Below are positions 3,725-51,391 of a DNA stretch of 64,000 bases, piece by piece. A model generated the notes under the pieces. It had not been told where the DNA came from, did no database searches, and saw nothing but the letters and a program-made list of their open reading frames with translations. This DNA comes from Dehalococcoidia bacterium (GTDB taxonomy: Bacteria; Chloroflexota; Dehalococcoidia; GIF9; AB-539-J10), in assembly GCA_030611085.1 (NCBI GenBank), contig JAUWQI010000001.1:32390-96389 (forward strand), in the 5' to 3' direction. The position numbers and the translations under genes were made by a program. Within the stretch, counting starts at the first letter, position 1. Every line of letters starts with the position of its first letter.

Positions 3725-6142
3725 ATGAAAATTGAGAGAGCTTTGATTTCTGTACTTTTAGTGGCTACCGTTCTGATTACCGGCTGTGGAACTGCTCAGC
3801 CACCCATATCCTCCGAGTTTACTATACCTTCGGTAGCTGGGAATGAGGTATCAAACCCCAAACTTGTTATGGGGAGCTGCTATAAGCCTGGAGATGTTTC
3901 TATGTCTCCTAACGCTCCTTCCTATCTATTGCCTCTGGATTTAGGTGAAATAACAAACTTGGGGAAGGTAGAATCGGAGTTTGGACTGAATGAAAGCCAA
4001 AAGCAGCTTCTGGAGAAAAATGGTTTTGTCGTTATTCCCTGGCATGGTGATGACATTGTCCAGCCTTATAAGACGCTTAAGGAGCAAGAAATTCCCATCT
4101 TTGTTACCTCGGATACTTTACTTCACTTATATCATATCCAGTTCAATGAAATCTTAAAACGCCTTGAGGAGGAAGAGTTTTTTGATGAGCTAATCGATAC
4201 GAGCTTGGCGATGATGGAAAGGGCAGAGCAGGATTACGAATCCTTCGCCGATGCTGACCTGAAGGAGGCTGCGAGAAGAAATGTGGCTTATTTCACCGTG
4301 GCTCTGAAGCTCCTGCAGACGCCGACCGGGGGATATGATGAAGCAAAGGTTAAACAGGAAATCGAGAAATGGAATAAAGAGCATCCCTGGGACAAGAAGG
4401 AGTTCAAGCCATTAAAGAAAGTTGATTTTGCTATCCCTAAGTATGTGGCGGATGAAGTTGACAAAGAAATTGAAAACATCGAAGCACACAAAGGCTTCAA
4501 GCCCAGTGCCATATTTAATTCGGAGAAAGATTGTGCCTGTGGATATCCCTGCTGCTATTGCGAGGACTACTCCCAGTATGTTCCCAGGGGGCATTACACC
4601 AGGAGCGAGGTGCTTAAAAGGTATTTCAAAGCGGCGATGTGGTATGGCAGGATGGCTTTCCTGCTCAAGGGTGGGGAGGGAGATGAATGTATGCAGCCAG
4701 AAGGGCCTTTGGTTAGTGAGAAAGATGCCAAAATAGCTACCATTCAAGCCGCGCTTATTTCAGCAGAACTGTCCCTTGTGTCATTGCGAGCGGAGCGAAG
4801 CAATCCCACCACGGTTTGGGAAATATGGAACAGAATTTACTCCGTCACTTCATTCTTTGTGGGCACCGCCGATGACCTGACACCCTACGAATACCTGGAT
4901 GCTATAGAGAAGGTTTTTGGCACCAGCTTTGATGTCAGTCAGCTTGCTAACGAGGAAGAACTGCTCAAGCTTAAAGCTGAGCTAGCTCAAATGAGGAATC
5001 CTGAAATCTATGGCGGCTCTGGCATTTGCGTTATCGCTCCCCCGGTAACTAAAGAAAAGCTCTACGAGTGCCTGGCTAAGACAAAGGGGATGAGATTCAT
5101 GGGGCAGAGGTTTATCCCCGACTCATATATGTTTCAGAATCTGATCTTTCCCACTGTGGGTAATTATGTGGGCAAGGATGAGCCATTTACCATGAAGATG
5201 ACTATACTCGGTCCTCAGAGATGCTTCCCCCGAGGATTAGATGTCATGGGAGTTTTGGGCTCTGAGCGGGCTTATGAGATATTGAAGGCCGAAGGCGATA
5301 CCGAATACCAGGGGAAAGACACCAGTTATGATAAGCAGCTAGGCGAGCTTAGAAAGGAATTTGGTGCTTTTACTGAGGAAGACTGGAATCATAATCTTTA
5401 TTGGAGTTGGCTTTATGCCTTGAAGCCGCTGCTTGAGAATTTCAACCAAGGTTATCCCGCCTTTATGCAAACCGAGGCATGGCAGGATAAGGAACTGCAA
5501 ACTGCCTTAGCATCCTGGACTGAGCTTCGGCATGACACCATTCTATATGCCAAGCAAAGCTATACTCCAGCGGCAACAGCGATGCCACCTCAGCCAAAAC
5601 CTGTGGTGGGCTATGTCGAACCCATTCCTGAGTTTTATTCCCGCATGCTGGCACTCACCACAATGACAAAAAATGGGCTAGCCCAGCTCGATGCCTTAAG
5701 CGACAAGGAGAAGTCGAGACTGGAGAGATTGGAAGGCATTCTGGAGAGGTTAATCCAAATCTCCAAAGATGAGTTAGAAGGCAAAGAACTAAGCAAAGAG
5801 GATTATGGATTCATCAGGAATTTTGGTGGGCAGCTCAATTCTATAGTCGCTGGTGTTGAGGCTAAAGGCAAGGAAACCACCCTTGTTGCTGATGTTCATA
5901 CTGATACTAACTCACCAATGGAAGTCTTGGAAGAAGGGGTGGGTTATGTTGACCTTGCCTTAGTGGCTTATAAAGTTCCCGATGGCAGGATTATCCTTGG
6001 CGCTGGCCCCACGCTTAGCTACTATGAGTTCAAACAGCTTATGGAGCAAGGAAGATTGACTGATGAGCAGTGGAAGGAGATGCTAGAGCAAGGGCAACAG
6101 CCTCCAAGGCCAGATTGGATAGATAGCTTCTATGCTGGCTAG
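3725..6142 (+). CDS. DUF3160-family lipoprotein
   Basis: Lipobox LITGC; DYSQYVPRGHYT, FMGQRFIPDSY, LASWTELRHDTILYAKQSY and VADVHTD motifs. Confidence 0.9.
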   Translation: MKIERALISVLLVATVLITGCGTAQPPISSEFTIPSVAGNEVSNPKLVMGSCYKPGDVSMSPNAPSYLLPLDLGEITNLGKVESEFGLNESQKQLLEKNGFVVIPWHGDDIVQPYKTLKEQEIPIFVTSDTLLHLYHIQFNEILKRLEEEEFFDELIDTSLAMMERAEQDYESFADADLKEAARRNVAYFTVALKLLQTPTGGYDEAKVKQEIEKWNKEHPWDKKEFKPLKKVDFAIPKYVADEVDKEIENIEAHKGFKPSAIFNSEKDCACGYPCCYCEDYSQYVPRGHYTRSEVLKRYFKAAMWYGRMAFLLKGGEGDECMQPEGPLVSEKDAKIATIQAALISAELSLVSLRAERSNPTTVWEIWNRIYSVTSFFVGTADDLTPYEYLDAIEKVFGTSFDVSQLANEEELLKLKAELAQMRNPEIYGGSGICVIAPPVTKEKLYECLAKTKGMRFMGQRFIPDSYMFQNLIFPTVGNYVGKDEPFTMKMTILGPQRCFPRGLDVMGVLGSERAYEILKAEGDTEYQGKDTSYDKQLGELRKEFGAFTEEDWNHNLYWSWLYALKPLLENFNQGYPAFMQTEAWQDKELQTALASWTELRHDTILYAKQSYTPAATAMPPQPKPVVGYVEPIPEFYSRMLALTTMTKNGLAQLDALSDKEKSRLERLEGILERLIQISKDELEGKELSKEDYGFIRNFGGQLNSIVAGVEAKGKETTLVADVHTDTNSPMEVLEEGVGYVDLALVAYKVPDGRIILGAGPTLSYYEFKQLMEQGRLTDEQWKEMLEQGQQPPRPDWIDSFYAG
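4779..4807. repeat. Family-A half element inserted in frame in the DUF3160 gene (VSLRAERSNP)
   Basis: TGTCATTGCGAGCGGAGCGAAGCAATCCC is nearly identical to the intergenic copy at 13561-13589. Confidence 0.85.
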
Positions 6143-6158
6143 CGGGTGTTTAAGCAAT

Positions 6159-6204
6159 GTAGTGCGAGGCTTTAGCCTCGTGCACGACCCTAAGGTCGCA
6201 CTAC
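6159..6204. repeat. GTAG-footed REP doublet between convergent genes
   Basis: GTAGTGCGAGGCTTTAGCCTCGTGCACGACCCTAAGGTCGCACTAC; supplies the TAG stop of ORF 6201-7100. Confidence 0.8.
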
Positions 6205-7100: not shown

Positions 7101-7225
7101 AAGCTAAATCCCCGCAATTGTAGCAAGTCTAACGCACTAATACTACTTAGATTAGCAACCTCACCCTGAAACAAGGAGGGCAGGTCTTATTAACGGCTTG
7201 CCCCCCTTTCTTACTAAGGCTCGAT

Positions 7226-7324
7226 TTAGCCCTGCACCCTGCGGCGTCTCATAAATATGATAACTCCAGCTATACTAGCTACAAGCAAAGCAATCCAGGG
7301 TACTCGAATAGCAACTTTTTTCAC
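7226..7324 (-). CDS. 32-aa ORF resembling an orphan C-terminal membrane anchor/sorting signal
   Basis: Translated by hand: (EGAYP)VKKVAIRVPWIALLVASIAGVIIFMRRRRVQG; TM helix plus basic tail; GTG start with GAGGGG upstream. Confidence 0.4.
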   Translation of the reverse strand: MKKVAIRVPWIALLVASIAGVIIFMRRRRVQG

Positions 7325-9613: not shown

Positions 9614-9659
9614 ATTTCTGTTCTCTCCTCCTGCTTTTAAAGTTATTTAACAATCCACT

Positions 9660-9753
9660 TGTCATTCTGAGGGAGTGAAGCAACCGAAGAATCTCCGCTC
9701 AGGGTAAACTCCGCGAAGAATCTGGAGCCCCTGCGCTAGTACTCAGGGTGACA
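9660..9753. repeat. Family-A palindromic element
   Basis: TGTCATTCTGAGGGAGTGAAGCAACCGAAGAATCT...CTCAGGGTGACA; followed by TAAACACTCT (TIR-like). Confidence 0.85.
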
Positions 9754-9823
9754 ATTAAACACTCTGCTTGTTTGATTATACAAGATTATTGTATTATAGA
9801 GCAAAGCTTGCTTGAGGTGATTA

Positions 9824-16457: not shown

Positions 16458-16589
16458 GAGGCTGTTTAATTTTGTTTTTCCGTTTGATTTTGGGTATTTT
16501 GGGGAGTCTTCACCCCCAAATTTTTGTAGTTGCCTGATTTATCAGGCTTAGCCCAATAAATTGGGCAACTACATTTTTTAAACAGCCTC
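16458..16589. mobile_element. MITE-like element: 12-bp TIR GAGGCTGTTTAA, 6-bp TSD ATTATA, carrying family-B REP doublet
   Basis: TIRs at 16458-16469 and 16578-16589; ATTATA at 16452-16457 and 16590-16595. Confidence 0.8.
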
Positions 16590-23241: not shown

Positions 23242-23326
23242 TGCTTTACCTCCCGCGCCATAGCAGGCTGAGTCCCGGGGCACAGCCTGCTATGGATTTA
23301 ATTTTCAAGGCATGCCGCCTTAGTGT

Positions 23327-23503
23327 TTACTTGGGTTTCTTTAAGGTTCCCAGGCTGATGTTTACCTTCCCCAACAACTTGAGGGAGCGTCCAAAGAGCT
23401 TGCCGCCAACATCTTCCATATCAATGTTGAGGTCGGTTTCCTTATCGGTAATCTTGTCTACCAGGTCAAGGACTGGTCCCTGTTCTTTGTCTACTTCTGC
23501 CAT
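23327..23503 (-). CDS. Small helix+beta-hairpin paralogue 3, 58 aa, not in the ORF track
   Basis: MAEVDKEQGPVLDLVDKITDKETDLNIDMEDVGGKLFGRSLKLLGKVNISLGTLKKPK; AAGGAGG RBS; 50/58 identical to the C-terminus of 23605-24024. Confidence 0.9.
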   Translation of the reverse strand: MAEVDKEQGPVLDLVDKITDKETDLNIDMEDVGGKLFGRSLKLLGKVNISLGTLKKPK

Positions 23504-23604
23504 TGTTCTTACCCTCCTTATAAATTTTCTATAATTTGCAAGCTATGCCCCCGGGACGCGGCTTACTATAGGGGTTAATCTTCAATGTAACTTTCTCTCA
23601 GTAT

Positions 23605-24024
23605 TTACTTGGACTTCTTCAAGGTTCCCAGGTCAATGTTTACCTTCCCCAGCAATCTTAAGGAACGCCCAAAGAGTTTGCCACCGACATCTTCAATATT
23701 GATGTTCAGGCTGGTCTCCTTATCGGTAATCTTGTCTATCAGGTCGAGCACTGGTCCTTGCTCTTTTTCTACTTCTGCCATTGTTATTACCTCCTCTGGT
23801 ATTTTTTCTATTTCCACTGCTTCTTCTACCGCTGGTACTTCCTCTATCAGCTTCTTCGCTGCTGCTATAAATGTGCCGCCTCTATCTCCGACTATCCCTT
23901 CGAGCTCCTCAGGGCTGGCTACTGCTACAGCCTCGACCGTCATATACCCGGCTGCAGCCAGTTTTTTTGCCGTTGTCGGACCGACCCCGGCAACCTTCTG
24001 TAGTTCCTCTTCAGTGTCAATCAT
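23605..24024 (-). CDS. RadA/Rad51-type HhH domain fused to paralogue 2 (internal start at 23781)
   Basis: GVGPTTAKKLAAAGYMTVEAVAVASPEEL; last 58 aa match 23327-23503. Confidence 0.85.
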   Translation of the reverse strand: MIDTEEELQKVAGVGPTTAKKLAAAGYMTVEAVAVASPEELEGIVGDRGGTFIAAAKKLIEEVPAVEEAVEIEKIPEEVITMAEVEKEQGPVLDLIDKITDKETSLNINIEDVGGKLFGRSLRLLGKVNIDLGTLKKSK

Positions 24025-24590: not shown

Positions 24591-24678
24591 GTTTAGTCTT
24601 CCTCCCCAATGGACTTTAAATTATATGGCGCATCCAACATCATATACGCGTTTTACTTGTGGGGTTTTCACCCCCACC

Positions 24679-25134
24679 TTACCTCTCTCCCTTCAAAGGA
24701 GAGGAATTCAAGCCTCGCAATGACATCGATTTAATCCTTTTATCATTTCTATGTGGCAGCTCAGTCTCCCCATAGCGGCATAGCGAGGCCCTAATCTGAG
24801 CTGCTAGCTCGTCATAATTTGTGGGTAACTGCATGTAATAATCCCAGTCCGTAGGGACTTCCGAGTTTGGGGAATAAACTTCCCCCTCCGATTTAGTACC
24901 CAAAAGGATGAGAGGAAGATTAAATAAACGGTGTATTTGCCAACAGAGAGTGAAGCCATCTAGCCCGGGAGGGCTATCCCTGACAACAACTGCGTCAGGG
25001 GTAGCCTTATCCACTATTTTAAACCCCGCTAATTCGGATGAGGCTACCATCACCTCAAAGCCAGACCCGGTAAGAGCTGAAGCTATCTTCTTTGCCGAGG
25101 CAAGGTCGCTGTCGATAACAAGAACACTATTCAT
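24679..25134 (-). CDS. Atypical receiver-domain protein; C-terminus formed by repeat DNA
   Basis: VLVIDSD, PGLDGF, LPLILL; no output domain; tail SLRGLNSSPLKGER read from family-A and family-D repeats. Confidence 0.7.
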   Translation of the reverse strand: MNSVLVIDSDLASAKKIASALTGSGFEVMVASSELAGFKIVDKATPDAVVVRDSPPGLDGFTLCWQIHRLFNLPLILLGTKSEGEVYSPNSEVPTDWDYYMQLPTNYDELAAQIRASLCRYGETELPHRNDKRIKSMSLRGLNSSPLKGER

Positions 25135-25683: not shown

Positions 25684-26670
25684 ATGCAACAGGAGCTAAA
25701 TAGATTTCTTCACTATCTTGAGGTTGAGAAGGGATATTCCCAAGGCACTATCGAGGCATATCGGCTTGATATAGGAAAAGGGCTATTCCCATTCCTGCAT
25801 GAGATTGAGATTGCCACGCCTTCGGCTCGCAATGACAGGGTAGAAGAGGTCACGAAGGATGACATCCGAGCATATTTGGACTATCTAGCTGTTGAAAGGG
25901 CTAACTCCGGTGTTACCAGAGCACGCAAGCTAGCAGCAATAAAGTCATTCTTCAATTACTTGGTGGAAAATGAAGGGCTTGAAGCAAACCCGGCAGCTTC
26001 GGTAAAGAGTCCCAAGATACCTGAAAAGGAGCCGGTGTATCTGAGTGAGGAAGAGTGCCTTCGTTTTTTACAGATAATAGCCCAAAAAGCCAGACCACAG
26101 GTTAGAGAGCGGGATATGGCAATAGCTATGCTCTTGCTTCATACTGGGCTAAGGGTATCGGAGCTAACAAATCTGAAATTTTCTAATGTTGATCTTGAGA
26201 GAAGTCAGATAAAAATAACCAGGAAAGGGAGTAAAGAACAATATCTTCACCTGAATGGTGAAGCAGTAAGCGTATTGGTAAATTACCTTCATAGCTATCC
26301 ATATGACAGGAGATTGCCACGCTTCGCTCGCAATGACAGGGGGGAGATGGCTCGCAATGACGGAGGACTTTTGCCACAGGCTCAAAACGGCAGGTTTTTT
26401 GTAGGAACCAAAGGTCAAAATCTGAACCGCACTTATGTTTATAGTGTGGTGCGAAGATACTTAGAACTGGCGGGTATCAATAAAGATAAGCAGGGACCTC
26501 ACCTCTTGAGACATACCTTCTGCACCAGGCTACATCAGAAGGGAGTCTCACCCTTCGTGATAAAGGAACTCGCTGGTCACAAAAGCCTTAATACAACCAT
26601 GAGATATATCAAAATAGAAAATAAGGAGCAGTCTGAAGCCCTTGATAGACTGGAGTTTGGTATTCTTTAA
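25684..26670 (+). CDS. Tyrosine recombinase (XerC/D-like)
   Basis: TGLRVSEL, RKGSKE, HLLRHTF, LAGH...TTMRY catalytic set; AAGGAGG RBS; two in-frame repeat insertions. Confidence 0.93.
   Translation: MQQELNRFLHYLEVEKGYSQGTIEAYRLDIGKGLFPFLHEIEIATPSARNDRVEEVTKDDIRAYLDYLAVERANSGVTRARKLAAIKSFFNYLVENEGLEANPAASVKSPKIPEKEPVYLSEEECLRFLQIIAQKARPQVRERDMAIAMLLLHTGLRVSELTNLKFSNVDLERSQIKITRKGSKEQYLHLNGEAVSVLVNYLHSYPYDRRLPRFARNDRGEMARNDGGLLPQAQNGRFFVGTKGQNLNRTYVYSVVRRYLELAGINKDKQGPHLLRHTFCTRLHQKGVSPFVIKELAGHKSLNTTMRYIKIENKEQSEALDRLEFGIL
26585..26653. repeat. 69-bp direct repeat copy 1 (3' part of the recombinase gene)
   Basis: 68/69 identical to 27634-27702. Confidence 0.95.
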
Positions 26671-27286: not shown

Positions 27287-27651
27287 AAGGTAAAGTATAT
27301 GTTCCCAACCGCGGTGATGCCATCTGGATCACTTTGAATCCTCAGGCTGGCTACGAACAATCCGGGCGTCGGCCAGCAGTTGTCCTCTCACCAAGGATAT
27401 ACAATGGCAAGGTAGGGCTTGCTATTCTGTGCCCCATCACGAATCAAATCAAAGGTTATCCTTTTGAGATTCTCATCCCTTCTGCTCTAGCCGTCAGTGG
27501 AGCGATCCTGTCTGACCAGGTGAAGAGCCTGGATTGGCGAGCGCGGGAAGCTGAATGGATTTGCAGACTACCGGACAACACTATTGCGGAGACATTTCAG
27601 AAACTGAGCACACTATTGTTTCAGGGAGCGAATGCCTTAATACAACCATGA
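27280..27651 (+). CDS. mazF: MazF/PemK endoribonuclease toxin
   Basis: YVPNRGD, PQAGYEQSGRRPAVVLS, DQVKSLDWRAR. Confidence 0.93.
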   Translation: MVKGKVYVPNRGDAIWITLNPQAGYEQSGRRPAVVLSPRIYNGKVGLAILCPITNQIKGYPFEILIPSALAVSGAILSDQVKSLDWRAREAEWICRLPDNTIAETFQKLSTLLFQGANALIQP

Positions 27652-27702
27652 GATATATCAAAATAGAAAATAGGGAGCAGTCTGAAGCCCTTGATAGACT
27701 GG
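27634..27702. repeat. 69-bp direct repeat copy 2; supplies the mazF stop codon
   Basis: 68/69 identical to 26585-26653. Confidence 0.95.
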
Positions 27703-27747: not shown

Positions 27748-29475
27748 TTACATTCTCTCGGGGGCTGTCATGCCCATGAGGTGAAGAACCCTGGCTAAAA
27801 CAATCTGAGTTGCTCTGACCAACTTAAGCCGAGCTTTAGTCAGCTCTTCATCCTGGGAAATGACTCTGCATTGCTTATAAAAGCTGTGGAAAACGGTAGC
27901 TAAATCTTGAGCATAGTAGGGTAGATGATGAGGCTCAAGGGTAGTTGCTACCTCTTCTATTATTTCGGGGAGAAGTATTAAGCGGCGAATTAAAGTTAAC
28001 TCTGGCTCAGTTGAGAGCAGAGAAACATCGCCTTGGGCATAATCTATCCTCTGCTGCTTGGCTAACCTGAGAATACTGGCAATCCGAGCATAAGCATATT
28101 GAACATAATACACGGGATTATCCACTGATTGCTTCTTAGCTAGCTCTATATCGAAGTCCATCTGGCTGTCAGCAGAGCGAGAAAGGAAGAATAAGCGGCA
28201 AACATCTGGTCCTACTTCATCAATCAACTCCCGCAGGGTAACGATGTCACCGCTACGTTTAGATACTTTGACCATTTCCTTCCCACGCCGCAGAGTAACT
28301 AACTGACAGATTATTACCTTGAGATGTTCAGGGGCTACTCCTAGAGCTTTGAGCATCGCTTTCATCCGGGGAACATGTCCCTGGTGGTCAGCCCCCCAAA
28401 TATCAATTACAGTGCTGAATCTTCGCTCCAGAAATTTGTTGTAGTGATAGGCAATGTCAGAGGCAAAATAAGTAGGAGAGCCATCACTACGCAGCAGAAC
28501 ATTATCTTTATCCTCGCCTAAGGCAGTCGATTCAAACCAGGTGGCGTTTTCCTTCTTAGCTACATAGCCTCCGTCTTGTAGCAATGCCATGGCTTTATGG
28601 TACTGAGATCCTTCCCCTTCACTTTGTTCAGGGTCAGGACGATAAAGGCTTTTTTCACTAAACCAAACATCAAAGTCAACATTTAATAGCTTAAGGTCTT
28701 CCTTAATTCCCTGTATTATCCGGGCAAGTCCAATTTTAGCTAATTCTGAAATTGCTTCGCCTTCGGCTCGCAATGGCGATTCACCCTCACCCAACCCTCT
28801 CCCTTCAAGGGAGAGGGAAAATTTATCACCTTGCTCCTGAACAATTTCCTTCGCCAGGTCAATCATGTAATCACCAAGATAGCTGTTCGGGAGCATGGCA
28901 ACCTCTTTGCCTAAGCACTGTTGATAGCGTGCATAGAGGGAGCGGCCGAAGCTGTCTATCTGGTTGCCCATATCATTTACATAATATTCCTTTTCTACTG
29001 AGTAACCAGCAGCGCTGAGTACGTTTGCTAAGGTGCTACCTAAGACAGCACCACGTCCATGGCCTACATGGAGAGGACCGGTGGGGTTGACACTAACAAA
29101 CTCAAGTTGAACACGACTGCCTTTGCCTGATAGGCTAGCGCCATATGATTCACCAGTTTCCAGAATCGATGTCACTTGCCCACATAGCCAGTCATCCCGC
29201 AAGTTGAAGTTGATAAAACCTGGCGAAGCAATCATAACCTTATCGAATTCGGAAGGAGGCGATACATGCTCGTATATTCTTTCAGCTATAGCCATAGGTG
29301 ACATCCTCATACCACGAGCTAGTTTCAGGGGGAGGCCTGAGGCAAAATCTCCGTGCTCTGGGTTCTGGGGATGTTCCACGGTTATTTCAGGCAAAGTTGT
29401 GGTAACAAGCTCACCCTGTTGTTGCGCTTCAAGCACTGCTTCTCGGAGACAAGCAGCTAATTTTTCCTTAAGCAT
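27748..29475 (-). CDS. argS: Arginine--tRNA ligase
   Basis: EFVSVNPTGPLHVGHGR, WGADHQGH, SKRSG, YVQYAYARI; two repeat insertions. Confidence 0.97.
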   Translation of the reverse strand: MLKEKLAACLREAVLEAQQQGELVTTTLPEITVEHPQNPEHGDFASGLPLKLARGMRMSPMAIAERIYEHVSPPSEFDKVMIASPGFINFNLRDDWLCGQVTSILETGESYGASLSGKGSRVQLEFVSVNPTGPLHVGHGRGAVLGSTLANVLSAAGYSVEKEYYVNDMGNQIDSFGRSLYARYQQCLGKEVAMLPNSYLGDYMIDLAKEIVQEQGDKFSLSLEGRGLGEGESPLRAEGEAISELAKIGLARIIQGIKEDLKLLNVDFDVWFSEKSLYRPDPEQSEGEGSQYHKAMALLQDGGYVAKKENATWFESTALGEDKDNVLLRSDGSPTYFASDIAYHYNKFLERRFSTVIDIWGADHQGHVPRMKAMLKALGVAPEHLKVIICQLVTLRRGKEMVKVSKRSGDIVTLRELIDEVGPDVCRLFFLSRSADSQMDFDIELAKKQSVDNPVYYVQYAYARIASILRLAKQQRIDYAQGDVSLLSTEPELTLIRRLILLPEIIEEVATTLEPHHLPYYAQDLATVFHSFYKQCRVISQDEELTKARLKLVRATQIVLARVLHLMGMTAPERM

Positions 29476-29787: not shown

Positions 29788-32379
29788 TTAGCTCCATTCG
29801 ACTTCCTTAGGCCATACTTGGCTTAGTTGCTGACCTAGAAGTTGATGTTCCGCTGTTTTGAAATCAGGGTCGCTTTGGAAAATACTTATTGCCTCTTGCC
29901 GAGCCAATTCTAAGAGATGCAAGTTAGACAGCTTAGCTACTTTAAGGTCGGGCAAGCCACTTTGCTGAGTGCCAAAAAACTCCCCCGGGCCTCTTAGCTC
30001 TAAGTCTTTCTCCGCTAGAGCGAAGCCATCGTGGATTTTCTCCATTAGCTTTAGCCGCTCCTTTACCTCGGGCGAAAATTTCCCAGGAATAAGTATACAA
30101 TAACCTTGCTCTTTGCCTCGGCCTACTCTTCCCCTGAATTGATGAAGCTGAGATAAGCCAAAATGGTCAGCACCTTCTATCACCATAACTGTAGCTTTAG
30201 GCACATCAATACCGACCTCTATTACTGATGTTGACACCAGGATATCAATTTCCCCAGCACGGAAGTGGCGCATCACCTTCTCTTTGTCCTCAGCGTGCAT
30301 TTGGCCATGAAGCAATCCCAGCCTTAAATCTGGGAAAATCTCTTTAGATAGGCGTTCGTATTCTGTTGTAGCCGCTTTTGCCTCAGGCAATTCCGATTCT
30401 TCGACTAGTGGACAAATAATGAAGGCTTGTCCTCCATTGCTAACCTGGCGGTGGAGGAAACCATAAACCTTTCCTGTATATCGTGGCTCAATACACTTCG
30501 TTTTTACCACCCGTCGTCCTGGAGGTAACTCATCAATAACTGAGAGGTCGAGGTCTCCATAAAGTGTCAGCGCCATAGTTCGAGGAATAGGTGTAGCTGT
30601 CATAACCAACACATGAGGATTGAACCCCTTTTGCCGGAGCTTCTGGCGTTGCAACACGCCAAAGCGATGTTGCTCGTCTATCACTGTCAAGCCCAGCTTG
30701 TTAAATTCTACCCCTTTTTGAATGAGGGCATGAGTGCCAATAACAATATCAATTTCACCTTGCGTGATCTTACGGTGTAAATTCTCCTTTTCACCTTCCC
30801 TAAGGCTGCCGATGAGAAGAGCGATAGTAAGCGGTCGTGGGAGAAATTCTGAAAAGGATGCAAGCGAGGAATCTCGCTCCTCGCAATGACAGGTTTGGGT
30901 GCTGGCTTTAGCTAGATATTCGCTGATACTAGCGAAATGCTGTTCGGCTAATACTTCAGTGGGGGCCATCAGTGCTCCTTGATAGCCATTGGCAACAGCT
31001 ATTAGTAGAGCCAAAACGGCGATTACGGTTTTACCACTACCTACCTCGCCTTGAAGAAGGCGTGACATAGCTTTTGGGCGTTTGAGGTCGATTGAGATCT
31101 CCTCCAGCACTCGCTCCTGAGCCCGAGTTAGGGTGAAAGGAAAGCAGTGTAAAAATTTGCTAATAAGCTCCGGGTCTATATTAAAGGCATTGCCCGGCTG
31201 ACTTTCTTGCCAGTCGCGCTTTCTTCTCAAGACACCTAGTTGGAGAAGGAATAACTCGTCAAAGGCTAACCTCTCCCGTGCTTCCTCTGCTATCAATTGG
31301 CTATCAGGGTAATGAGCTTGCTTGATTGCTTCAGGGAGGTCTGGCAGGCGGCAGTGATTTTTTATATTTTGGGGCAAGAAATCACTCACTTGCCATAGCC
31401 AGCCGTCAATAGCTTCCTTCGTCCATCCCCTCACTCGCCTGGGATACAAGCCTCGAGTGAGAGGATAAACGGGAACCAATCGGCCGGTGTGAATTAACTC
31501 TTTATCTTCAAGTAATTCCCATTCCGGAGATTCAAAAACCTTCTGCCCTTTGAATAAACTTACTGTGCCACTAATTACCACTTTAGCATTGGTAGGGAAT
31601 TTCTTAGCTAGATAAGGTTGGTTAAACCAAACTACTCTGATGTTTCCTGTCTCATCACCCACAATTGCCTCTGTGCCTCGCCGATTGCCAAAAGTGGCCA
31701 CTCTGGCTTGCCATACTGTGGCTACAATAGTTTGTTCCGCATCTTCCCTAAGTGCGGCGATGAACTTCCTTTGGCTATAGTCAACATAGCGTCTGGGGAA
31801 AAAATAAAGCAAGTCACGCACTACCCTCACATTAAGTTTGGCAAATTTAGCAGATGCCTTAGGCGTTATACCTTTGATGATAGTTATGGGTGAATCTAGT
31901 CTTTCATTTTTCTTTTGGGGCTGTGACTTAGCTACTGCTGTTACGCTGATCTGAAGCCCTGAGTCCTGGTCCTGACGATAGGAAGGATCTGAAGGAACTG
32001 AAGGGGCAAGCGAAGGGTCTCTAGATTCTTCGCTACGCTCAGAATGACAGGAAGCGAAGGGCTCAGAATGATAGATAGGAGTCCTTTCCTTTTCCAGCTT
32101 ATCTAGCCAGTCGAAAATGCTTGTCACCCATCTGTGGCGCTCATTTATACTGTGGGAACTGTAGTTGTAGCTAGCCAATCCTAATTCATCAAAGTCGGCT
32201 AAAAGTTGTGAGGTCAACTCCTTCGTTTTCACTTCGTTCAGACTCAGGACAAGGCTTTGCCTGATTCGCTCCGCCTGCTTGTGAAGATATTTATCTAGCC
32301 CGCCGATAACTGCTTTATCGGCATAACCTTTCTTGCATTCCAATTCAAGAACATTTCGTAGCGAGTCGATGTTTAGCAT
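29788..32379 (-). CDS. recG: ATP-dependent DNA helicase RecG
   Basis: LQGEVGSGKT, IDEQHRFGV, MTATPIPRT, QFRGRVGRG; three in-frame repeat insertions. Confidence 0.97.
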   Translation of the reverse strand: MLNIDSLRNVLELECKKGYADKAVIGGLDKYLHKQAERIRQSLVLSLNEVKTKELTSQLLADFDELGLASYNYSSHSINERHRWVTSIFDWLDKLEKERTPIYHSEPFASCHSERSEESRDPSLAPSVPSDPSYRQDQDSGLQISVTAVAKSQPQKKNERLDSPITIIKGITPKASAKFAKLNVRVVRDLLYFFPRRYVDYSQRKFIAALREDAEQTIVATVWQARVATFGNRRGTEAIVGDETGNIRVVWFNQPYLAKKFPTNAKVVISGTVSLFKGQKVFESPEWELLEDKELIHTGRLVPVYPLTRGLYPRRVRGWTKEAIDGWLWQVSDFLPQNIKNHCRLPDLPEAIKQAHYPDSQLIAEEARERLAFDELFLLQLGVLRRKRDWQESQPGNAFNIDPELISKFLHCFPFTLTRAQERVLEEISIDLKRPKAMSRLLQGEVGSGKTVIAVLALLIAVANGYQGALMAPTEVLAEQHFASISEYLAKASTQTCHCEERDSSLASFSEFLPRPLTIALLIGSLREGEKENLHRKITQGEIDIVIGTHALIQKGVEFNKLGLTVIDEQHRFGVLQRQKLRQKGFNPHVLVMTATPIPRTMALTLYGDLDLSVIDELPPGRRVVKTKCIEPRYTGKVYGFLHRQVSNGGQAFIICPLVEESELPEAKAATTEYERLSKEIFPDLRLGLLHGQMHAEDKEKVMRHFRAGEIDILVSTSVIEVGIDVPKATVMVIEGADHFGLSQLHQFRGRVGRGKEQGYCILIPGKFSPEVKERLKLMEKIHDGFALAEKDLELRGPGEFFGTQQSGLPDLKVAKLSNLHLLELARQEAISIFQSDPDFKTAEHQLLGQQLSQVWPKEVEWS

Positions 32380-33372: not shown

Positions 33373-35004
33373 TTATTCCAGCGAGATTATATAATTATAA
33401 TATGGTTGCCCTCCGCGAACTATTTCAACCTGTATAGAATATTTATCCTGAATTTCCCAAGCTATGCTTTCAGCTTCGCTAGCTTGAGTCTCAGCACCGT
33501 AGTAGATAGTCATCACATCGGCATCTTCAATATCTGCCTTTAGTAGAGCTTCAAAAATAACCTCTTTTATATTACTGCCACTGGCTATCAAATTCTCATC
33601 ATTCAGGATGGCAATGAATTGCCCCTTTTTTATCTTCATGCCATTGAGCTGTGTCTTGCGTACTGCTTTAGTAACTTCTATAGTTTTTATTGCGGTTATC
33701 GCCTCTTCCATAACTTGAGCATTTTTCTCTAGGTTTGCCTCGTAGCTGAAGGCAAGAAATGCTGCTATGCCTTGCGGGACGGTTCTGGTAGGAACTACCT
33801 TCACCTTCTTTGAAGTTAAAGATTCAACCTGAGAAGCTGTGAGGATGATATTTTTGTTATTAGGCAATAGAATAACATTATCTGAAGGTGCTGATTCCAC
33901 AGCTTGAACTAGCTGACGAACACTAGGGTTCATTGTTTGACCACCAGGGACAGTGATCGCAGTACCTAAGCTATTAAATACTTCCAAAAAGCCATCTCCA
34001 GAGGCGACCGTTACCATAGCGATATCAGCTGTGGGCAATCTTTCTTTTTGCATTTTAATAAATTCGACATATTGGTCATCCATATTATTGATACTTATCT
34101 GATGCAAAGTGCCTAGATGTGTAGCATAATTGATGATCTCGCCGGGCTCAAAGCTATGAATGTGAACTCGGACTAAAGATTCATCACCAGAAATGATTAA
34201 AGATTGTCCTTTCTTTCCCAAATCTTTTTTGAGCTTTTTCAAATCAAGACTTTGCCCTTTCAGTACAAAATTGGTGCAATACCCGTAAGGTACTTCAACC
34301 TCAGTGGCCGTGGGAGCCATCTTCGGGGTCAGTGCCACATCGGCAGCAACTAGCCTCGGTTGCCGATACTGCATCTTATCCTTTTCCCCTTTAAGGTGAT
34401 GAAGAGCGCCATCCAGCAGAACATAAATGCCCTGCCCCCCAGCATCCACTACACCTGCCTCCTTCAATACTGGTAACAGGCTAGGTGTTCGAGCCACTGA
34501 ATCTTTGGCTGCCTCCACTGCAGCTTCTAGCACTGAGAGCAAGTTTTCAGAATTAACTTTAGCTGTCTTATCAGCGGCTTCGGCAGCATCTTTAAGCACG
34601 GTCAACATAGTACCTTCTACAGGGTGGATAATTCCCTCGTAGGCAGTTTGTGATGCTTCAGCTAATGCTGTGGCGAAATCTTTAGCATCAAAGGAACTCT
34701 TGCCCTCCAGCCCCTTAGCCAAGCCGCGCCAGAATTGAGATAGGATTACTCCCGAATTACCTCGCGCTCCCATTAAGGCGCCGTAAGCCAGCGATTTGGT
34801 CATTGAGGAGGCGTCGCTATCTGAATTTCTAGTTGCTTCTTCTAGAGCAGAGCGCATAGTAAGCAACATATTGGTTCCTGTATCACCATCGGGAATAGGA
34901 AAAACATTTATAGCATTGATATCGGGGGCACTTTTTTCCAGCCAGGTAGTGCCTGAAGCAAATATCTCTTTTAAGAGTTGACCATCAGGTAGATTAGCCT
35001 TCAT
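33373..35004 (-). CDS. DAK2-domain fatty acid kinase catalytic subunit (FakA)
   Basis: NVFPIPDGDTGTNM, GARGNSGVILSQ, VDAGG, GGQTMNPS. Confidence 0.94.
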   Translation of the reverse strand: MKANLPDGQLLKEIFASGTTWLEKSAPDINAINVFPIPDGDTGTNMLLTMRSALEEATRNSDSDASSMTKSLAYGALMGARGNSGVILSQFWRGLAKGLEGKSSFDAKDFATALAEASQTAYEGIIHPVEGTMLTVLKDAAEAADKTAKVNSENLLSVLEAAVEAAKDSVARTPSLLPVLKEAGVVDAGGQGIYVLLDGALHHLKGEKDKMQYRQPRLVAADVALTPKMAPTATEVEVPYGYCTNFVLKGQSLDLKKLKKDLGKKGQSLIISGDESLVRVHIHSFEPGEIINYATHLGTLHQISINNMDDQYVEFIKMQKERLPTADIAMVTVASGDGFLEVFNSLGTAITVPGGQTMNPSVRQLVQAVESAPSDNVILLPNNKNIILTASQVESLTSKKVKVVPTRTVPQGIAAFLAFSYEANLEKNAQVMEEAITAIKTIEVTKAVRKTQLNGMKIKKGQFIAILNDENLIASGSNIKEVIFEALLKADIEDADVMTIYYGAETQASEAESIAWEIQDKYSIQVEIVRGGQPYYNYIISLE

Positions 35005-36037: not shown

Positions 36038-36121
36038 CTTCCCCTTCACTTTGTTCAGGGCTTTGGTTCACTCATTCGGAATGACAGGATTTGTCATTCC
36101 GAGCGTAGCAAAGAATCTCCC
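36038..36121. repeat. Family-A elements; the right one supplies the argH stop
   Basis: CTTCCCCTTCACTTTGTTCAGGG (identical to argS 28611-28633); TGTCATTCCGAGCGTAGCAAAGAATCT. Confidence 0.85.
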
Positions 36122-39719: not shown

Positions 39720-40625
39720 TCAAGGGAGAGCAGTCTGTTCGCTCCCAAGCTCTAGACTGATATCTAAAGCCCTGGCTGAATGAGTAAGGGCACCAATGGA
39801 GATGAAGTTAACCCCAGTTTCAGCTACAAGCCGAACCTTATCTAAAGTAATACCACCGGAGGCTTCGATTAAAGCACGACCGTGAATCATCTTAACCGCC
39901 TGGCACATATCGTCAAGACTCATATTGTCCAGCATAATGATATCTGCCTTAGCCTCACTAGCCTCCAGGGCTTCTTGGGGAGTCTTGACCTCCACCTCGA
40001 TCTTTAACCGCCGTGAAGTGTTTTGCCGAGCTCTTGCTACAATATCCTTGATGTTTAATCCCCGGCTATGAAGCAATGCTAAATGATTATCCTTGATGAG
40101 AATACCATCGCCCAAATTCATACGGTGGTTTTCGCCGCCGCCGACTCTGACAGCATATTTCTCCAATAGTCTTAACCCCGGGGTGGTCTTTCTGGTATCC
40201 ATAATGCGCACCCGCAACCCTTTAGTAGCCTCCACATAGCGATTTGCCTCTGAGGCAATGCCGCTCAAGTGCTGAAGGAAATTCAGAGCCACCCTCTCTG
40301 CTCTGAGAATGCTGGTTGCATTGCCTTCTATTTTAGCTGCTATGTCTCCGGGCTTAACTTTAGAACCGTCTTCAAGAAGAATATCCACTTTTAACTCCGA
40401 ATCAACTCGATGAAAAACTCGCTTAGCTACTTCAATGCCAGCCAGAATGCCCTTTTCTTTTATGATAACAAAGCCTGTTCCCTGTTGGGCACTCGATATC
40501 AAAGCGTCGGTAGTAACATCACCGGAGCTTAGGTCTTCAGCTAAAGCGAGGGCAACAATCTTTTCAATTTGCACAAGGCTAAAGCCACACATTACATTCT
40601 TAGCTTTTAACATTTTCACCTTCAC
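39720..40625 (-). CDS. nadC: Quinolinate phosphoribosyltransferase
   Basis: DTRKTTPGLR, HRMNL, IKDNH, MLDN, EASGGI. Confidence 0.96.
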   Translation of the reverse strand: MKVKMLKAKNVMCGFSLVQIEKIVALALAEDLSSGDVTTDALISSAQQGTGFVIIKEKGILAGIEVAKRVFHRVDSELKVDILLEDGSKVKPGDIAAKIEGNATSILRAERVALNFLQHLSGIASEANRYVEATKGLRVRIMDTRKTTPGLRLLEKYAVRVGGGENHRMNLGDGILIKDNHLALLHSRGLNIKDIVARARQNTSRRLKIEVEVKTPQEALEASEAKADIIMLDNMSLDDMCQAVKMIHGRALIEASGGITLDKVRLVAETGVNFISIGALTHSARALDISLELGSEQTALP

Positions 40626-40626
40626 C

Positions 40627-42202
40627 TTAATTCTCTCCCGTCAAGGGAGAAGAGAGGAAAGTTATATGCCTTTGCCAGGCAGACGAGGTCTGAGGGAAAT
40701 CACTACGGAAGTGAGCACCGCGGCTCTCCTCTCGAAGCAAAGCAGCCTCGGTTACCAGCCTGGCACATAACACCAAATTATTTAGTTCGTAGGATTGGCG
40801 GTCAATAGGTTGAGACAAAGAGCGTTGCCAGGTAGCCAAAATGCCTGCAGCATTAGCTAGGCTTTCACCAGAACGAATAATGCCCACTTTGTCCCACATA
40901 AGAGACTGCAGACTAGGCAAATTAAGCGGTGGCACATTCTTTAGTCCTGAGTCTCTAGTCTTGAGTCTTGAGTCTTGAGTCTTGACTTCTTGACTCTTGA
41001 CTCTCGACTCCTGACTCCTTATGACAAGGAGCGGTAGTCCTTTCCGCCACTCGCTTACCAAAAACAACTGATTCAAGCAGTGAATTTGATGCCAGCCTGT
41101 TAGCTCCGTGCACGCCGGTGCAGGCAGTCTCGCCAGCAGCAAATAGACCGGAGATGTTTGTTTCACCCCAAGTATTCACTTTTACTCCTCCCATAAGATA
41201 ATGAGCTGCCGGGGCTACCGGGATGAGCCCTCTGGTAATATCCAAACCATGAGCCAAACAAAAGCGGTAAATATGGGGGAAACGAGTGGTGATTAGCCGA
41301 GGTGGTAAATGGGTGACATCCAGAAATACTCTATCACTTCCTGTCTTTCTCATTTCGTAGACAGTGCTGCGGGCTACTATATCCCTTGCCGCTAGCTCGG
41401 CTTCAGCAACGTAGTTTGGCATAAAGCGGTAGCCTTCCACATTTCTAAGTATGCCACCCTCTCCCCTTACCGCCTCGGAGATGAGGAAGGGAGCCACTCC
41501 GGGCAGGCGAAGAACAGTGGGGTGGAATTGGAAAAATTCCATATCGCTGATTCCAGCCCCAGCCTTAAAAGCTAGAGCTACGCCATCGCCAGTAACCACA
41601 TCAGAATTGGTACTATATTTAAACAGGCGCCCAACCCCCCCAGTAGCTAAAATGAGAAATTGGCAGCTATATTCCTCCACTAAGCCAGTTCGGCAATCAA
41701 GTGACTTCACGCCTTTTACCTTGTTGCCCTCTACCAAAATCTCGCTAGCCAAACAATCCTCTAAAATCTTGATTGAGCTTGACCTCACTTGCTGGCTTAG
41801 GGAAAGCTCAATATGCTCGCCTGTGGCATCTCCACCAGCATGGATGATGCGCGGGGTACTATGAGCTGCTTCTCTAGTCAAAGTAATTTCACCATTTAAG
41901 GTATCGAAAGGGACTCCAAATCTGATTAAGTCAGCAATGCACTCAGCGCCCTCTTCAGTCAAAATACGCACCGCTTCAGCATCGCATAAGCCATCACCGG
42001 CAGCCATAGTATCTTTGAAGTGAAGCTCAGGAGAGTCATCCTTGCTCATAGCAACAGCAATACCACCTTGAGCATACTTAGTATTGCAGTCATCAATGTT
42101 GCCTTTAGTCAAGATAAGAACGCTGCCTTGCTTTATAGCAAGCAAGGCGATGTAAAGGCCAGCAATGCCGCTGCCCACTATAATGTAGTCGTAGTGATTC
42201 AT
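40627..42202 (-). pseudogene. nadB: L-aspartate oxidase split by a frameshifting heptamer-repeat insertion (possibly phase-variable)
   Basis: N-part 40955-42202 (GSGIAG, QFHPT, HYLMGG, HGANRLASNSL); C-part in the +1 frame (MWDKVGIIR, REESRGAHFRSDFP). Confidence 0.9.
40941..41018. repeat. Inverted heptamer arrays including perfect (TTGAGTC)3 at 40961-40981
   Basis: (GAGTCTT)n facing (GACTCTT)n, read directly from the sequence. Confidence 0.9.
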
Positions 42203-44961: not shown

Positions 44962-46311
44962 TCAAAGTATAATTTTGCCTTGCAGCGCCCAAGGGCTGCT
45001 TTTGTCAACTTTAACTTTCAACAATTGACCAAGATAGCCAGCATCGTCTTCAAAGAAGACCAGCTTATTACTCCTAGTGCGTCCATACCACTTATCTTTC
45101 TTCTCACCTTCCACCAGTACCTGCACTATCTTTCCCTGAAGCTGTGAGTTTATTTCAGAAGCTATGCTTGCTTGGAGGTCTTCAATTTTATTGAGCCTTT
45201 TCCTCTTAATCTCTGGAGGAACATTATCTTTGTATTTCTGCGAGGCGATAGTGCCAGGACGAGGCGAGTAAGCTGCCACATGAACAACATCAAACCTTAA
45301 TTCTTGGAGTAACGAAAAGGTATGTTCAAATTGCTCCTCCGTTTCTCCAGGGAAGCCAACGATAACATCGGTGCTTAAAGATACTTCAGGGATATGGCAC
45401 CGAACAGTATGGATAAGTTCACGATATTGTTCCACGGTGTATCCCCGTCTCATGGCTCTCAGTATATCATCATCGCCTGCCTGAATGGCTAACTCCAGGT
45501 GTTCACAAACCTTATTCAGGGAAGCTACAGCCCCAATGAGCTTCGGGCTCATGTCTTTAGGATGGTTTGTCAGGAAGCGAATTCTGACCAAGTTATCGAT
45601 GCCATTTAGTCTAGCTAGTAAGTCAGCCAAGTTGGGTTTCCCAGGCAAATCATGTCCGTAAGAGTCAACATTTTGTCCCAGCAAAGTTATCTCTTTTACA
45701 CCACGCTTCACCATTTCTTCAACCTCGCAGACTATTTCCTCTACAGGGTGACTTACCTCCTTACCCCGCCGATAAGGAACAATACAGTAAGAGCAGAAAT
45801 TATCACAGCCTTGAATAATGGGAACAAAGGCACATGGTAAGGAAGTCCCCAAAGTGTCATTGTGAGCCCTGCGCTCCTTGTTATTCTGAGGGAGCGAAGC
45901 GACTGAAGAAGCTCGCTCAGGGCAGGCTCCGCAAAGCAATCCTTGCTCAGCAACAAAAATACCTTGCCCTTTAGCCCAATCAATTAACTCGGAATAAGCC
46001 CCGGGCTTAAAGAAAAAATCAACCTGGGGAAATTGACTCTTTAACCCCTCAATATCGGAATCGACAAAGCAGCCAGTAACCAATATAGAGAGATTTGGGC
46101 GTTTCCTTTTCAAGCCCTGTAGTCCATTTAGGGTGCCTAGAACTTTATCTTCGGCGCTTTGCCTCACTACGCAGGTGTTGAGCACTATTAGATTGGCTTC
46201 TTGAAAAGAAGCTGTAGCCTGATAGCCAGCAGAATCCAGATAACCAGCTATATGCTGTGATTCCGCCTTATTCATCTGGCAGCCTATAGTCCAAATAGAA
46301 TAACGTGACAT
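44962..46311 (-). CDS. miaB: tRNA-2-methylthio-N6-dimethylallyladenosine synthase
   Basis: GCQMN, NTCVVR, GCDNFCSYC, IVGFPGET, TRAM domain; in-frame repeat insertion. Confidence 0.95.
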   Translation of the reverse strand: MSRYSIWTIGCQMNKAESQHIAGYLDSAGYQATASFQEANLIVLNTCVVRQSAEDKVLGTLNGLQGLKRKRPNLSILVTGCFVDSDIEGLKSQFPQVDFFFKPGAYSELIDWAKGQGIFVAEQGLLCGACPERASSVASLPQNNKERRAHNDTLGTSLPCAFVPIIQGCDNFCSYCIVPYRRGKEVSHPVEEIVCEVEEMVKRGVKEITLLGQNVDSYGHDLPGKPNLADLLARLNGIDNLVRIRFLTNHPKDMSPKLIGAVASLNKVCEHLELAIQAGDDDILRAMRRGYTVEQYRELIHTVRCHIPEVSLSTDVIVGFPGETEEQFEHTFSLLQELRFDVVHVAAYSPRPGTIASQKYKDNVPPEIKRKRLNKIEDLQASIASEINSQLQGKIVQVLVEGEKKDKWYGRTRSNKLVFFEDDAGYLGQLLKVKVDKSSPWALQGKIIL

Positions 46312-46380
46312 AGGGTAACCTCACCTCTTTTAGTTTCTATTAATTATAGTTAAAATATATAATTTAGGGAAGCGAAGAGC

Positions 46381-48151: not shown

Positions 48152-48187
48152 GGTGGAAATAAGCATCTTAGTAGCCCTACAATAAGG

Positions 48188-50187: not shown

Positions 50188-50200
50188 ACTTTTTCCCTGT

Positions 50201-50250
50201 TGTCATTGTGCGACCTTCGCTTATTGTCATTCTGAGCGAAGCGAAGAATC
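50201..50250. repeat. Family-A element directly upstream of mnmA
   Basis: TGTCATTCTGAGCGAAGCGAAGAATCT. Confidence 0.85.
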
Positions 50251-50257
50251 TGAAGAT

Positions 50258-51391
50258 ATGACTAAAAAGCGAGTAGCTGTAGCACTAAGTGGCGGTGTGG
50301 ATTCCTCCGTGGCAGCTTTACTGCTTAAAGAGGCTGGATATGAAGTTATGGGTCTGCATGCCCGTTTGTGGGAATCTCCAAGTTCAGAGCAACAGAGACA
50401 GCAAGCTGAAAGTATCTGCCGTATTTTAAACATCCCCTTTCACATGATAGAGTTACAAAAGGAATTTAACCTCCAAGTAGTTGATTACTTTTGCCAGGAG
50501 TACCAACAGGGGCGGACTCCTAATCCTTGCGTTGCCTGTAATCAGCATGTAAAGTTTGGCCTACTCCTCGATAAAGCCCTTTCCCTGGGTGCTGACTGTT
50601 TAGCCACGGGGCATTATGCCCAAATTGAGCATTCTGTCAATGGCTATCACTTGCTTAAAGGGGCAGATGCGAGCAAGGACCAATCTTACTTTCTTTATAC
50701 CTTAAATCAGGAGAAACTCAGATATGTTCTTTTCCCTTTAGGTGGATATACCAAAGTTGAGGTTAAGCAGATAGCAGTAGGGTCGGGGCTTGTCCCCGAC
50801 CGCGGGTTGCCTGTGACAGCTAAGCCTAGCCAGGATATCTGCTTCATCTCTCAGAAGAATTACCATGCTTTTATCAGCCAACGTTTTACCAACATGCCAG
50901 GAGATATCATAGATACTCAAGGGAAAATACTAGGTCGCCATCAAGGAATAGCCTATTACACTATTGGGCAAAGACATGGTTTAGGATTGTCGTCAGGTAA
51001 GCCTCTTTATGTCATAAAGATAGAGCCAGGGCTTAACAGAATTGTGCTTGGCGAAGAAAAGGAACTTTACAGTCAGAAAATTACCGCTCGAAAGTTGAGA
51101 TGGGTACCAGGTGAACTACCTTCTGAGCCTATCGCTATTACAGCTAGGATACGCTATAAATCGAGAGAGGCGGAAGCTATACTATACCCACCCTGTTATT
51201 GCGAGCAAGGCGAAGCAATCTCTGATATTTGCTTTTCTCAGCCGCAGCGAGCAAGCACTCCAGGACAAGCCATCGTGTTTTATAAAGGTGATGAAGTGCT
51301 GGGTGGCGGCACCATAGAAAATAAAAGATTAAAATGCAAAAGGCAAAAATGCAGGGCAAAGGTAAAAACATTTTTAAGTTTTGACTTTTAA
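50258..51391 (+). CDS. mnmA: tRNA 2-thiouridylase
   Basis: SGGVDSSVAA, TPNPCVACN, ATGHYA, KDQSYFL, SQDICF, TIGQR, PGQ; two in-frame repeat insertions and a repeat-derived tail. Confidence 0.96.
   Translation: MTKKRVAVALSGGVDSSVAALLLKEAGYEVMGLHARLWESPSSEQQRQQAESICRILNIPFHMIELQKEFNLQVVDYFCQEYQQGRTPNPCVACNQHVKFGLLLDKALSLGADCLATGHYAQIEHSVNGYHLLKGADASKDQSYFLYTLNQEKLRYVLFPLGGYTKVEVKQIAVGSGLVPDRGLPVTAKPSQDICFISQKNYHAFISQRFTNMPGDIIDTQGKILGRHQGIAYYTIGQRHGLGLSSGKPLYVIKIEPGLNRIVLGEEKELYSQKITARKLRWVPGELPSEPIAITARIRYKSREAEAILYPPCYCEQGEAISDICFSQPQRASTPGQAIVFYKGDEVLGGGTIENKRLKCKRQKCRAKVKTFLSFDF

Follow-up and report, generated by a model that had tools for sequence, protein, structure and literature searches.

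Do the palindromic repeats that lie between bacterial genes also become part of proteins, and if so, what puts them there? A 64,000-nucleotide stretch of the genome of a Dehalococcoidia bacterium raises this question: sequences matching its intergenic repeats recur in frame inside six of its genes. We refer to the whole stretch as the window (G000:C15:32390-96389); unless a contig is named, positions count from its first letter. The genome under study, G000, is an assembly of 1.16 Mb in 30 contigs (83% complete), and other G numbers denote the related genomes compared with it. The DNA of the window is present in four cold-seep metagenome runs, all from one study. The segments inside genes are copies of hairpin-forming repeats. 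We consider it probable that these were spread in trans by enzymes that are specific to each repeat family and act on single-stranded DNA, and that selection has filtered them down to the copies seen in intact genes.

A sequence-only reading of the window had listed 11 repeat-matching segments in the genes for a DUF3160 protein, a tyrosine recombinase, ArgS, RecG, MiaB and MnmA. Coordinates and encoded peptides of all 11 were reproduced, each within an uninterrupted frame. Matches were scored over at least 20 nt at 85% or more; every segment matched between 6 and 132 other loci of the genome, compared with 0–2 in the reversed genome, which served as the control. We distinguish four repeat families: A, a TGTC-tagged hairpin; B and D, both GTAG-tagged; and C, a triplex-type repeat. 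As had been proposed, three of these (A, C and D) contribute to the 11 segments, in both orientations and in several reading frames. Alignment to orthologs from 30 relatives (60 for DUF3160) likewise bore out that each segment lengthens its protein, the net gain over the modal ortholog length being 4–29 residues. The gain is smaller than the repeat length because target bases were replaced; a 70-nt segment in argS, for example, adds 14 residues. Such partial replacement is seen for most inserts, and no common target duplication was found at the junctions of the sites inspected.

In the DUF3160 gene (3725..6142, +; 805 residues), a family A hairpin at 4779..4807 (+) adds five residues relative to 12 orthologs, and the same site is filled in G037, G005, G035, G001 and G006. 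The tyrosine recombinase gene (25684..26670, +) was compared with a single ortholog, from G005, that is 87% identical and has neither of its inserts. The first, a family A hairpin at 25807..25837 (−), is read antisense and adds seven residues at the expense of about 13 target bases. The second adds 25 residues; it had been placed at its core (26310-26361) and in fact spans 26296..26370 (−), with a family A hairpin, a partial second copy and non-repeat flanks. Apart from these inserts, the 3′ end of the recombinase gene is present twice, in a 72-nt direct repeat (26582-26653 and 27631-27702, 97% identical). Between the two copies lies a stretch with a MazF-type gene, the arrangement that an integration would leave.

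Two segments lie in argS (27748..29475, −; 575 residues), each measured against 28 orthologs. A family A loop module at 28605..28644 (−) adds nine residues and is shorter in G017. The segment at 28748..28817 (−), formerly counted as one insertion, consists of two adjoining elements from two families, a family C repeat (~28780-28817) beside a family A hairpin (~28748-28775); it adds 14 residues and is common to G001, G017 and G015. The recG gene (29788..32379, −; 863 residues; 28–29 orthologs) holds three. A degenerate family A module at 32228..32256 (−), which adds 11 residues, is shared by only G002 among 28 orthologs, and a composite family A element in the N-terminal linker (31951..32073, −; about 29 residues) is elaborated differently in G001 and G002. 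The third, a family A segment at 30860..30891 (−) adding four residues, proved to be a near-replacement inside a variable loop that measures 33 residues in G000 and up to 81 in G001; G001 and G017 both have far longer expansions there. The sites themselves are real, and it is some of the reported boundaries and counts that had to be corrected.

In miaB (44962..46311, −; 449 residues), a family A composite at 45855..45942 (−) adds 25 residues to the inter-domain linker relative to 28 orthologs. The composite is new and sits within an older, shorter family A element, the outer part of which is carried by three other genomes (G015, G007 and G010). The mnmA gene (50258..51391, +; 377 residues) has two inserts of six residues each. 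One is a family D element, a GTAG-tagged repetitive extragenic palindrome (REP), at 50777..50801 (+); none of 27 orthologs has it, and it recurs exactly at three other places in the genome and, in G164, at a RAYT locus. The other, a family A hairpin at 51194..51222 (+; 26 orthologs), is common to G001, G012 and G006 and longer in G007 and G008. Separately, the end of mnmA is extended by an AT-rich repeat (~51310-51391).

The window comes from a metagenome assembly in which contigs break at several repeats, and collapsed repeats might have been misassembled into genes. Related repeat DNA is present, however, at 8 of the 11 sites in independent genomes, mostly of other genera and often at different lengths, and assembly errors would not preserve reading frames. 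Contigs from public runs bridge six of the 11 sites, and for five of these the bridging contigs come from runs that are not the possible source run; among the contig pieces listed, the two recombinase sites and two recG sites were unbridged, and DUF3160 lay outside this check. For the shared and bridged sites an assembly artefact can be ruled out, and as an explanation of the inserts it has a negligible probability.

The host genes are intact in other respects. Catalytic motifs are preserved in the recombinase, ArgS (HIGH-type and other motifs), RecG (helicase motifs), MiaB (radical-SAM cysteine motif) and MnmA, and outside the inserts the ratio of non-synonymous to synonymous substitution rates (dN/dS) is 0.06–0.16 in 12 of 13 pairs, the remaining pair being saturated. 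AlphaFold models cover the four inserts of ArgS and MnmA. Both ArgS inserts, including the module at 28605..28644, and the first MnmA insert are predicted as low-confidence loops, with part of the first ArgS insert extending a helix; the second MnmA insert is modelled as the extension of a beta-hairpin, and the ArgS model keeps the ArgRS fold. The expectation that inserts would be found in loops thus agrees with three of the four modelled cases.

That essential enzymes keep their function-critical motifs, and that the elements fold as hairpins, would also fit segments removed after transcription or translation in the manner of introns or inteins, which would leave proteins of normal length. 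We regard such removal as very improbable. The segments are far too short for inteins and their junctions delete target bases. Moreover, the copies that persist all have open frames, with a preference for polar ones, a pattern that only translation would lead one to expect.

Across the genome, family A accounts for 278 regions, compared with 6 in the reversed control, and families B, D and C for 90, 28 and 40, compared with none in the control for each. Merged, the four families occupy 361 loci, of which 79 lie inside open reading frames of 60 genes, in line with the high density claimed from the window. Fifty-four of the 79 (in 40 genes) fall within spans aligned to two repeat-poor relatives, and 43 of these 54 add at least four residues relative to every available reference. 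The references are themselves partial (0.63 of ~1.2 Mb for G045 and 1.01 of ~1.4 Mb for G003), so the ortholog-checked counts are lower bounds. The census as a whole is a lower bound too, since it missed the known sites at 25807, 32228 and 50777. The other 25 intragenic loci have no reference ortholog and are less secure. Families B and D contribute 4 of the 79 loci, plus the mnmA element at 50777. From their N-termini, we take the further hosts to include DnaE, PolA, UvrA, Mfd, IleS, ProS, PheT, TilS and HypF.

Repeats make up a large part of the insertions by which G000 differs from these relatives. Relative to G003 (499 genes), 42 of 90 insertions of at least five residues overlap repeats, with 54 insertions the opposite way; relative to G045 (367 genes), the figures are 21 of 57, with 33 the opposite way.

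The distribution of the copies bears the marks of a filter. Repeat density is 7.9 per 100 kb in coding DNA and 175 per 100 kb in non-coding DNA, about 22-fold lower in genes, the coding length being approximate. Both flanks aligned to one reference open reading frame at 56 loci; at 49 the frame is intact, and the other 7 look like shadow frames or lie before the start codon. Among these 56 testable loci, no convincing case of a conserved gene broken by families A–D was found. Intragenic family A heads lie on the sense strand in 71 of 90 cases, where stop-free placements of intergenic copies would lead one to expect 55%. The mean hydropathy of insert peptides is −0.90, compared with −0.41 for all open frames.

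The same data bear on whether copies are retained because they are useful, as Ssn cut marks that make core genes less replaceable by incoming DNA, as structures in the mRNA or as beneficial peptides. In Neisseria, SsnA and NTS repeats lower the integration of transforming DNA (PMC11893778; this and the other published work cited here is taken from the portions available to us), and a bias towards repair genes has been the subject of speculation (PMC3733652). Several inserts persist across genera, the ratio of non-synonymous to synonymous differences (pN/pS) within shared inserts is 0.134/0.232, which indicates weak constraint from few, non-independent pairs, and no other copy in the genome matches the triplex consensus as well as the one in argS. 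Against retention for function stand the ~22-fold depletion in coding DNA, a patchy presence in which a single clade of DUF3160 carriers is rejected and two genomes of one genus differ, and lengths at one site that range from zero to tens of residues, with families swapped in the same loop. On balance we find a retained function improbable.

What kind of element could reach so many genes? The core of family A comprises a TGTC tag, a 5-bp stem, tandem GA opposite GA, a 2-bp stem and a loop of 3–4 nt, mostly G-N-A or G-N-N-A (G-N-A in 47 of 62 seven-base inner segments). Among 86 cores, found with a scan that fixed GTC and left the first base alone free, the tag is TGTC in 85 and CGTC in one, and the tail is CT in 84. 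The 12-mer of the tag is the commonest 12-mer in the genome. The cap GCGN(N)AGC is 12-fold enriched in family A loci and follows the tag 113 times on the tagged strand, compared with twice on the complementary strand. Both GCGNAGC and GCGNNAGC are described as unusually stable when made of DNA and as far less stable when made of RNA (PMC13037366). A mini-hairpin that is stable as DNA and largely confined to one strand suggests a single-stranded DNA substrate rather than an RNA element. ViennaRNA energies gave little separation of the two strands; that program is not known to model sheared G-A pairs.

The cores measure 25–38 nt and composites up to ~180 nt. The idea that elements are built in multiples of three was rejected for the cores (26, 27, 28, 30 and 34 nt, among others) and fails for tail-to-tail spacing as well (1 of 16 intergenic spacings). 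The tandem head unit is mostly 24 nt, and 28 of its 40 intergenic spacings are divisible by three.

Each family brackets its own small enzyme gene, in G000 or in relatives. The sequence-only reading had named RAYT, GIY-YIG and DUF559 proteins as candidate mobilisers. Repeat-bracketed genes of these kinds do exist in G000 or its relatives, and to this extent the proposal stands; in the 83% complete G000 itself, RAYT and DUF559 were not found. The genome has one stand-alone GIY-YIG gene of 95 residues (C17:10435-10719) between family A repeats, the downstream copy being degenerate and recognised by eye. The closest named homolog of this nuclease is from Dehalococcoidia, and an NCBIfam search returned no family for it. 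By spacing, Y8, Y19 and E66 of the protein are in register with Y6, Y17 and E64 of SsnA, although the G000 copy has another residue in place of the Gly of the second motif. Homologs occur in 45 of the 151 genomes of the order. At the best 30 homolog loci, the family A motif stands on both sides in 25 and on at least one side in all 30; the corresponding figure for control windows is 4 of 44. The median number of motif copies is 62 in genomes with a homolog and 12.5 in those without; a homolog is present in 3 of the 43 genomes that are poor in repeats and in 35 of the 66 that are rich in them, although kin are not independent in these two comparisons.

RAYT was found in 20 and DUF559 in 17 of 73 family genomes. 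An exact copy of the mnmA family D element lies beside a Y1_Tnp (Y1 HUH transposase) gene in G164, and family B adjoins Y1_Tnp genes in G007, G035, G040 and G166 (15 of 27 Y1_Tnp matches inspected). Family C stands on both sides of 5 of the 10 stand-alone DUF559 loci inspected, out of 22 matches. The pattern of the published BoxC/PIT/TMECO intrastrand triplex repeat gave 12 copies within three mismatches, compared with none in the reversed control, and copies matching a relaxed TMECO pattern with zero mismatches flank DUF559 genes in G073 and G010.

Two arrangements of these cassettes were noted in passing. A DUF559 cassette (G133) and RAYT cassettes (G007, G035 and G040) apparently lie directly upstream of the same gene, a site that appears to be a shared hot spot for different enzyme–repeat cassettes. 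In G007 (C4:187484-188141), a RAYT gene is directly beside a truncated Ssn-like gene, with both repeat kinds between them.

Taken together, these features suggest how the inserts could arise. The partner enzymes would be an Ssn-like GIY-YIG nuclease for family A, a RAYT transposase for the GTAG repeats and a DUF559 nuclease for family C, and the repeats would be non-autonomous tags that these enzymes copy in trans at single-stranded DNA. The substrate would be single-stranded DNA folded as a one-strand hairpin with the GCGN(N)AGC mini-hairpin as its cap, and joining would remove a few target bases without leaving a duplication. Insertion would be blind to genes, and copies would be purged unless the frame stayed open and the peptide was tolerated, so that survivors combine an open frame, a polar peptide and a tolerant loop. 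A resident repeat may then attract further modules, which would give tandem and nested growth. The inserted peptides are probably translated and nearly neutral.

Could the copies have spread with no dedicated enzyme, through hairpin-caused template switching, slippage and gene conversion, with the nuclease genes as passengers or targets? Junctions that lose target bases without a common duplication would fit such a process, growth by tandem 24-nt units and nested modules suits slippage and ectopic recombination, and some repeat-rich genomes have no nuclease match. Yet every repeat family tightly brackets, in inverted arrangement, one enzyme family of its own and neither of the other two, and new copies have appeared where no homology existed beforehand, as at mnmA 50777 and in the recombinase. 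We therefore think enzyme-free spread unlikely.

Several observations weigh against spread by dedicated enzymes and selection for tolerated copies. The published work on Ssn nucleases demonstrates cleavage and, in the portions available, offers repeat expansion as a hypothesis only (PMC11893778). The published SRM pattern gave 2 hits in the genome, compared with 3–7 in eight Markov controls, and none in 30 homolog flanks; family A works like SRMs and by this test is not a member. Nine of 25 genomes with at least 100 motif copies gave no nuclease match, 5 of the 10 inspected DUF559 loci are not flanked on each side by the family C motif, and neither RAYT nor DUF559 turned up in the 83% complete assembly of G000. 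In the nuclease of G000, Gly21, a residue that 43 of 44 homologs have, is replaced by Ser, Val22 by Ala and Trp88 by Leu. The three positions are conserved in 39–43 of 43–44 homologs, and on the strength of these substitutions the enzyme may be decaying. Among single-orientation intergenic loci between co-directional genes, 28 of 46 also face the sense direction, a weaker bias than within genes (Fisher p 0.014), and the strand bias could be partly mechanistic. The predicted structural placement, finally, is drawn from two of the six host proteins, ArgS and MnmA.

With these points taken into account, we still favour enzyme-driven spread in trans followed by selection. More tentatively, and with somewhat less than even confidence, we propose that three unrelated enzymes (Ssn-type GIY-YIG, DUF559 and RAYT) may have converged on a lifestyle like that of REPs and RAYTs, each spreading copies of its own structured single-stranded DNA tag through the chromosome. 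The repeats might then be the main source of new protein loops in this lineage, at about half of the insertions of at least five residues, with resident repeats seeding growth, and the Ssn-type partner might read a GCGN(N)AGC mini-hairpin on tandem GA/GA, outside the published SRM motif.

How recent is this movement? Of 74 intragenic loci, 45 have an exact 24-mer in common with another locus, and many sites differ between G000 and same-genus G001. These two features point to recent movement of the repeats, which on such sequence comparisons is likely. That the DUF3160 carriers form one clade was rejected (p-AU 7e-5), and two genomes of one genus differ; the pattern implies repeated gain, loss or recombination. 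Across genomes, stepwise nested or tandem growth is seen at the same sites. The length at a single site varies between zero and tens of residues, and the family that fills a given loop can differ from genome to genome. A further example is the DAK2-domain gene at position 34557 of the window, which is empty in G000 and holds a 147-nt family A composite in G001. The description of the process as active mutagenesis is not supported as worded: 8 of the 11 sites are shared, the genome's own nuclease deviates at near-invariant residues, and no empty allele was seen, in that no listed contig joint in the four runs skips an insert, contigs being prone to drop rare variants.

The closest known parallel, already drawn from the sequence, is with the Rickettsia palindromic elements (RPEs), dispersed palindromes that lie between genes and in frame in apparently functional housekeeping genes (PMC10969869, PMC3184786, PMC3733652). 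The parallel is sound in that the same palindromic families occur between genes and in frame in intact genes, with several families per genome. RPEs, however, measure ~105–150 bp and have a conserved peptide, whereas the cores here are 25–38 nt and are read in five of the six frames; the host comes from cold-seep metagenomes, and genes for partner enzymes are visible. The inserts thus work like RPEs, but by unit size and conserved peptide they are not RPEs.

In-frame REPs have been described in tRNA synthetase, pseudouridine synthase, repair and polymerase genes, with double insertions in one gene, and in-frame GTAG and CGTC REPs are reported from several species outside Rickettsia (Di Nocera et al. 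2013, PMC3733652). The two tags of those superfamilies, CGTC/TGTC and GTAG, are the same two seen here. The portions of that study available to us list no CGTC family for Chloroflexi and report no enzyme for CGTC repeats (PMC3733652). CGTC/TGTC REPs have an 8–9 bp stem, a 4–5 nt loop and a CCA-like tail, whereas family A has a 5-bp stem, GA/GA, a 2-bp stem and a 3–4 nt loop. As in REP/REPIN–RAYT systems, families B and D are GTAG-tagged palindromes bracketing Y1_Tnp genes in relatives (PMC3733652); the differences are that RAYT was not found in G000 and that few B or D copies are intragenic.

The family A locus resembles the Ssn system in its repeat–nuclease–repeat cassette, its single-domain GIY-YIG protein of ~95 residues, its TGTCA-type tag and its Tyr/Tyr/Glu register; SsnA cuts only one strand of its hairpin, as single-stranded DNA (Chenal et al. 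2025, PMC11893778). The BoxC/PIT/TMECO repeat, whose consensus has a C-rich stem, a loop and two G-rich blocks, is described as always intergenic in E. coli K-12, and the available text reports that no associated mobile element was found (Holder et al. 2015, PMC4666352). The family C element of argS fits its consensus except that the second loop is 2 nt and not 3 nt, and, unlike TMECO, the repeats here are read in frame and bracket DUF559 nuclease genes. In a literature search with subscription journals outside its scope, we found no paper on in-frame palindromic insertions in Dehalococcoidia and, among the papers listed, none tying DUF559 to such repeats; the listing for GIY-YIG likewise included no relevant paper.

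Outside genes, the window holds an intergenic family A composite at 9658..9760 (no strand assigned), with others at 3308, 13558, 16689, 25273, 26852, 33246, 36038, 50201 and 62248. Intergenic GTAG-tagged copies of families B and D lie at 1112..1321 (no strand assigned), with other family B copies at 16512, 37487, 62937 and 63044. Outside the scored coding set, family C is found at 24666..24706 (no strand assigned), 39705 and 40614. Gene ends, too, are formed by repeats: the tail of nadB is covered by a family C copy (40614-40655), and the stop of argH overlaps with a family A copy (36090-36119). The nadB gene (40627-42202, −) is itself split by a frameshift in a 7-nt tandem array near 40950-41010, whereas its G003 ortholog is one frame of 540 residues; the split may reflect true slippage at this site or a mistake in the assembly. 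Similar 6–7 nt arrays are in frame in several G000 genes and, in G001 and G012, in the linker of miaB, so that a further repeat class adds peptides, and 6-nt tandem arrays flank a four-helix-bundle gene (PF05635) at G000:C11:38258-38569. A 195-nt direct repeat (23319-23513 and 23597-23791, 84% identical) lies within a run of small open reading frames.

The phenomenon itself was already known, as RPEs, intragenic REPs and the link of Ssn to TGTC-type repeats have been published (PMC3733652, PMC11893778). What is new is the lineage, the density, the pairing with three enzymes and a DNA mini-hairpin core outside the published motif. Across the window and the related genomes, empty, filled and expanded alleles of the same loops form a dense and dated record of peptides inserted naturally into essential enzymes. 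This allele series maps the tolerant loops of these proteins and shows repeat DNA turning into protein sequence. The defined enzyme–repeat pairs also make testable the spreading of their repeats by Ssn nucleases, in the available text a hypothesis only (PMC11893778), and the identity of a mobiliser for the BoxC/triplex repeat, for which the portions available report no associated mobile element (PMC4666352).

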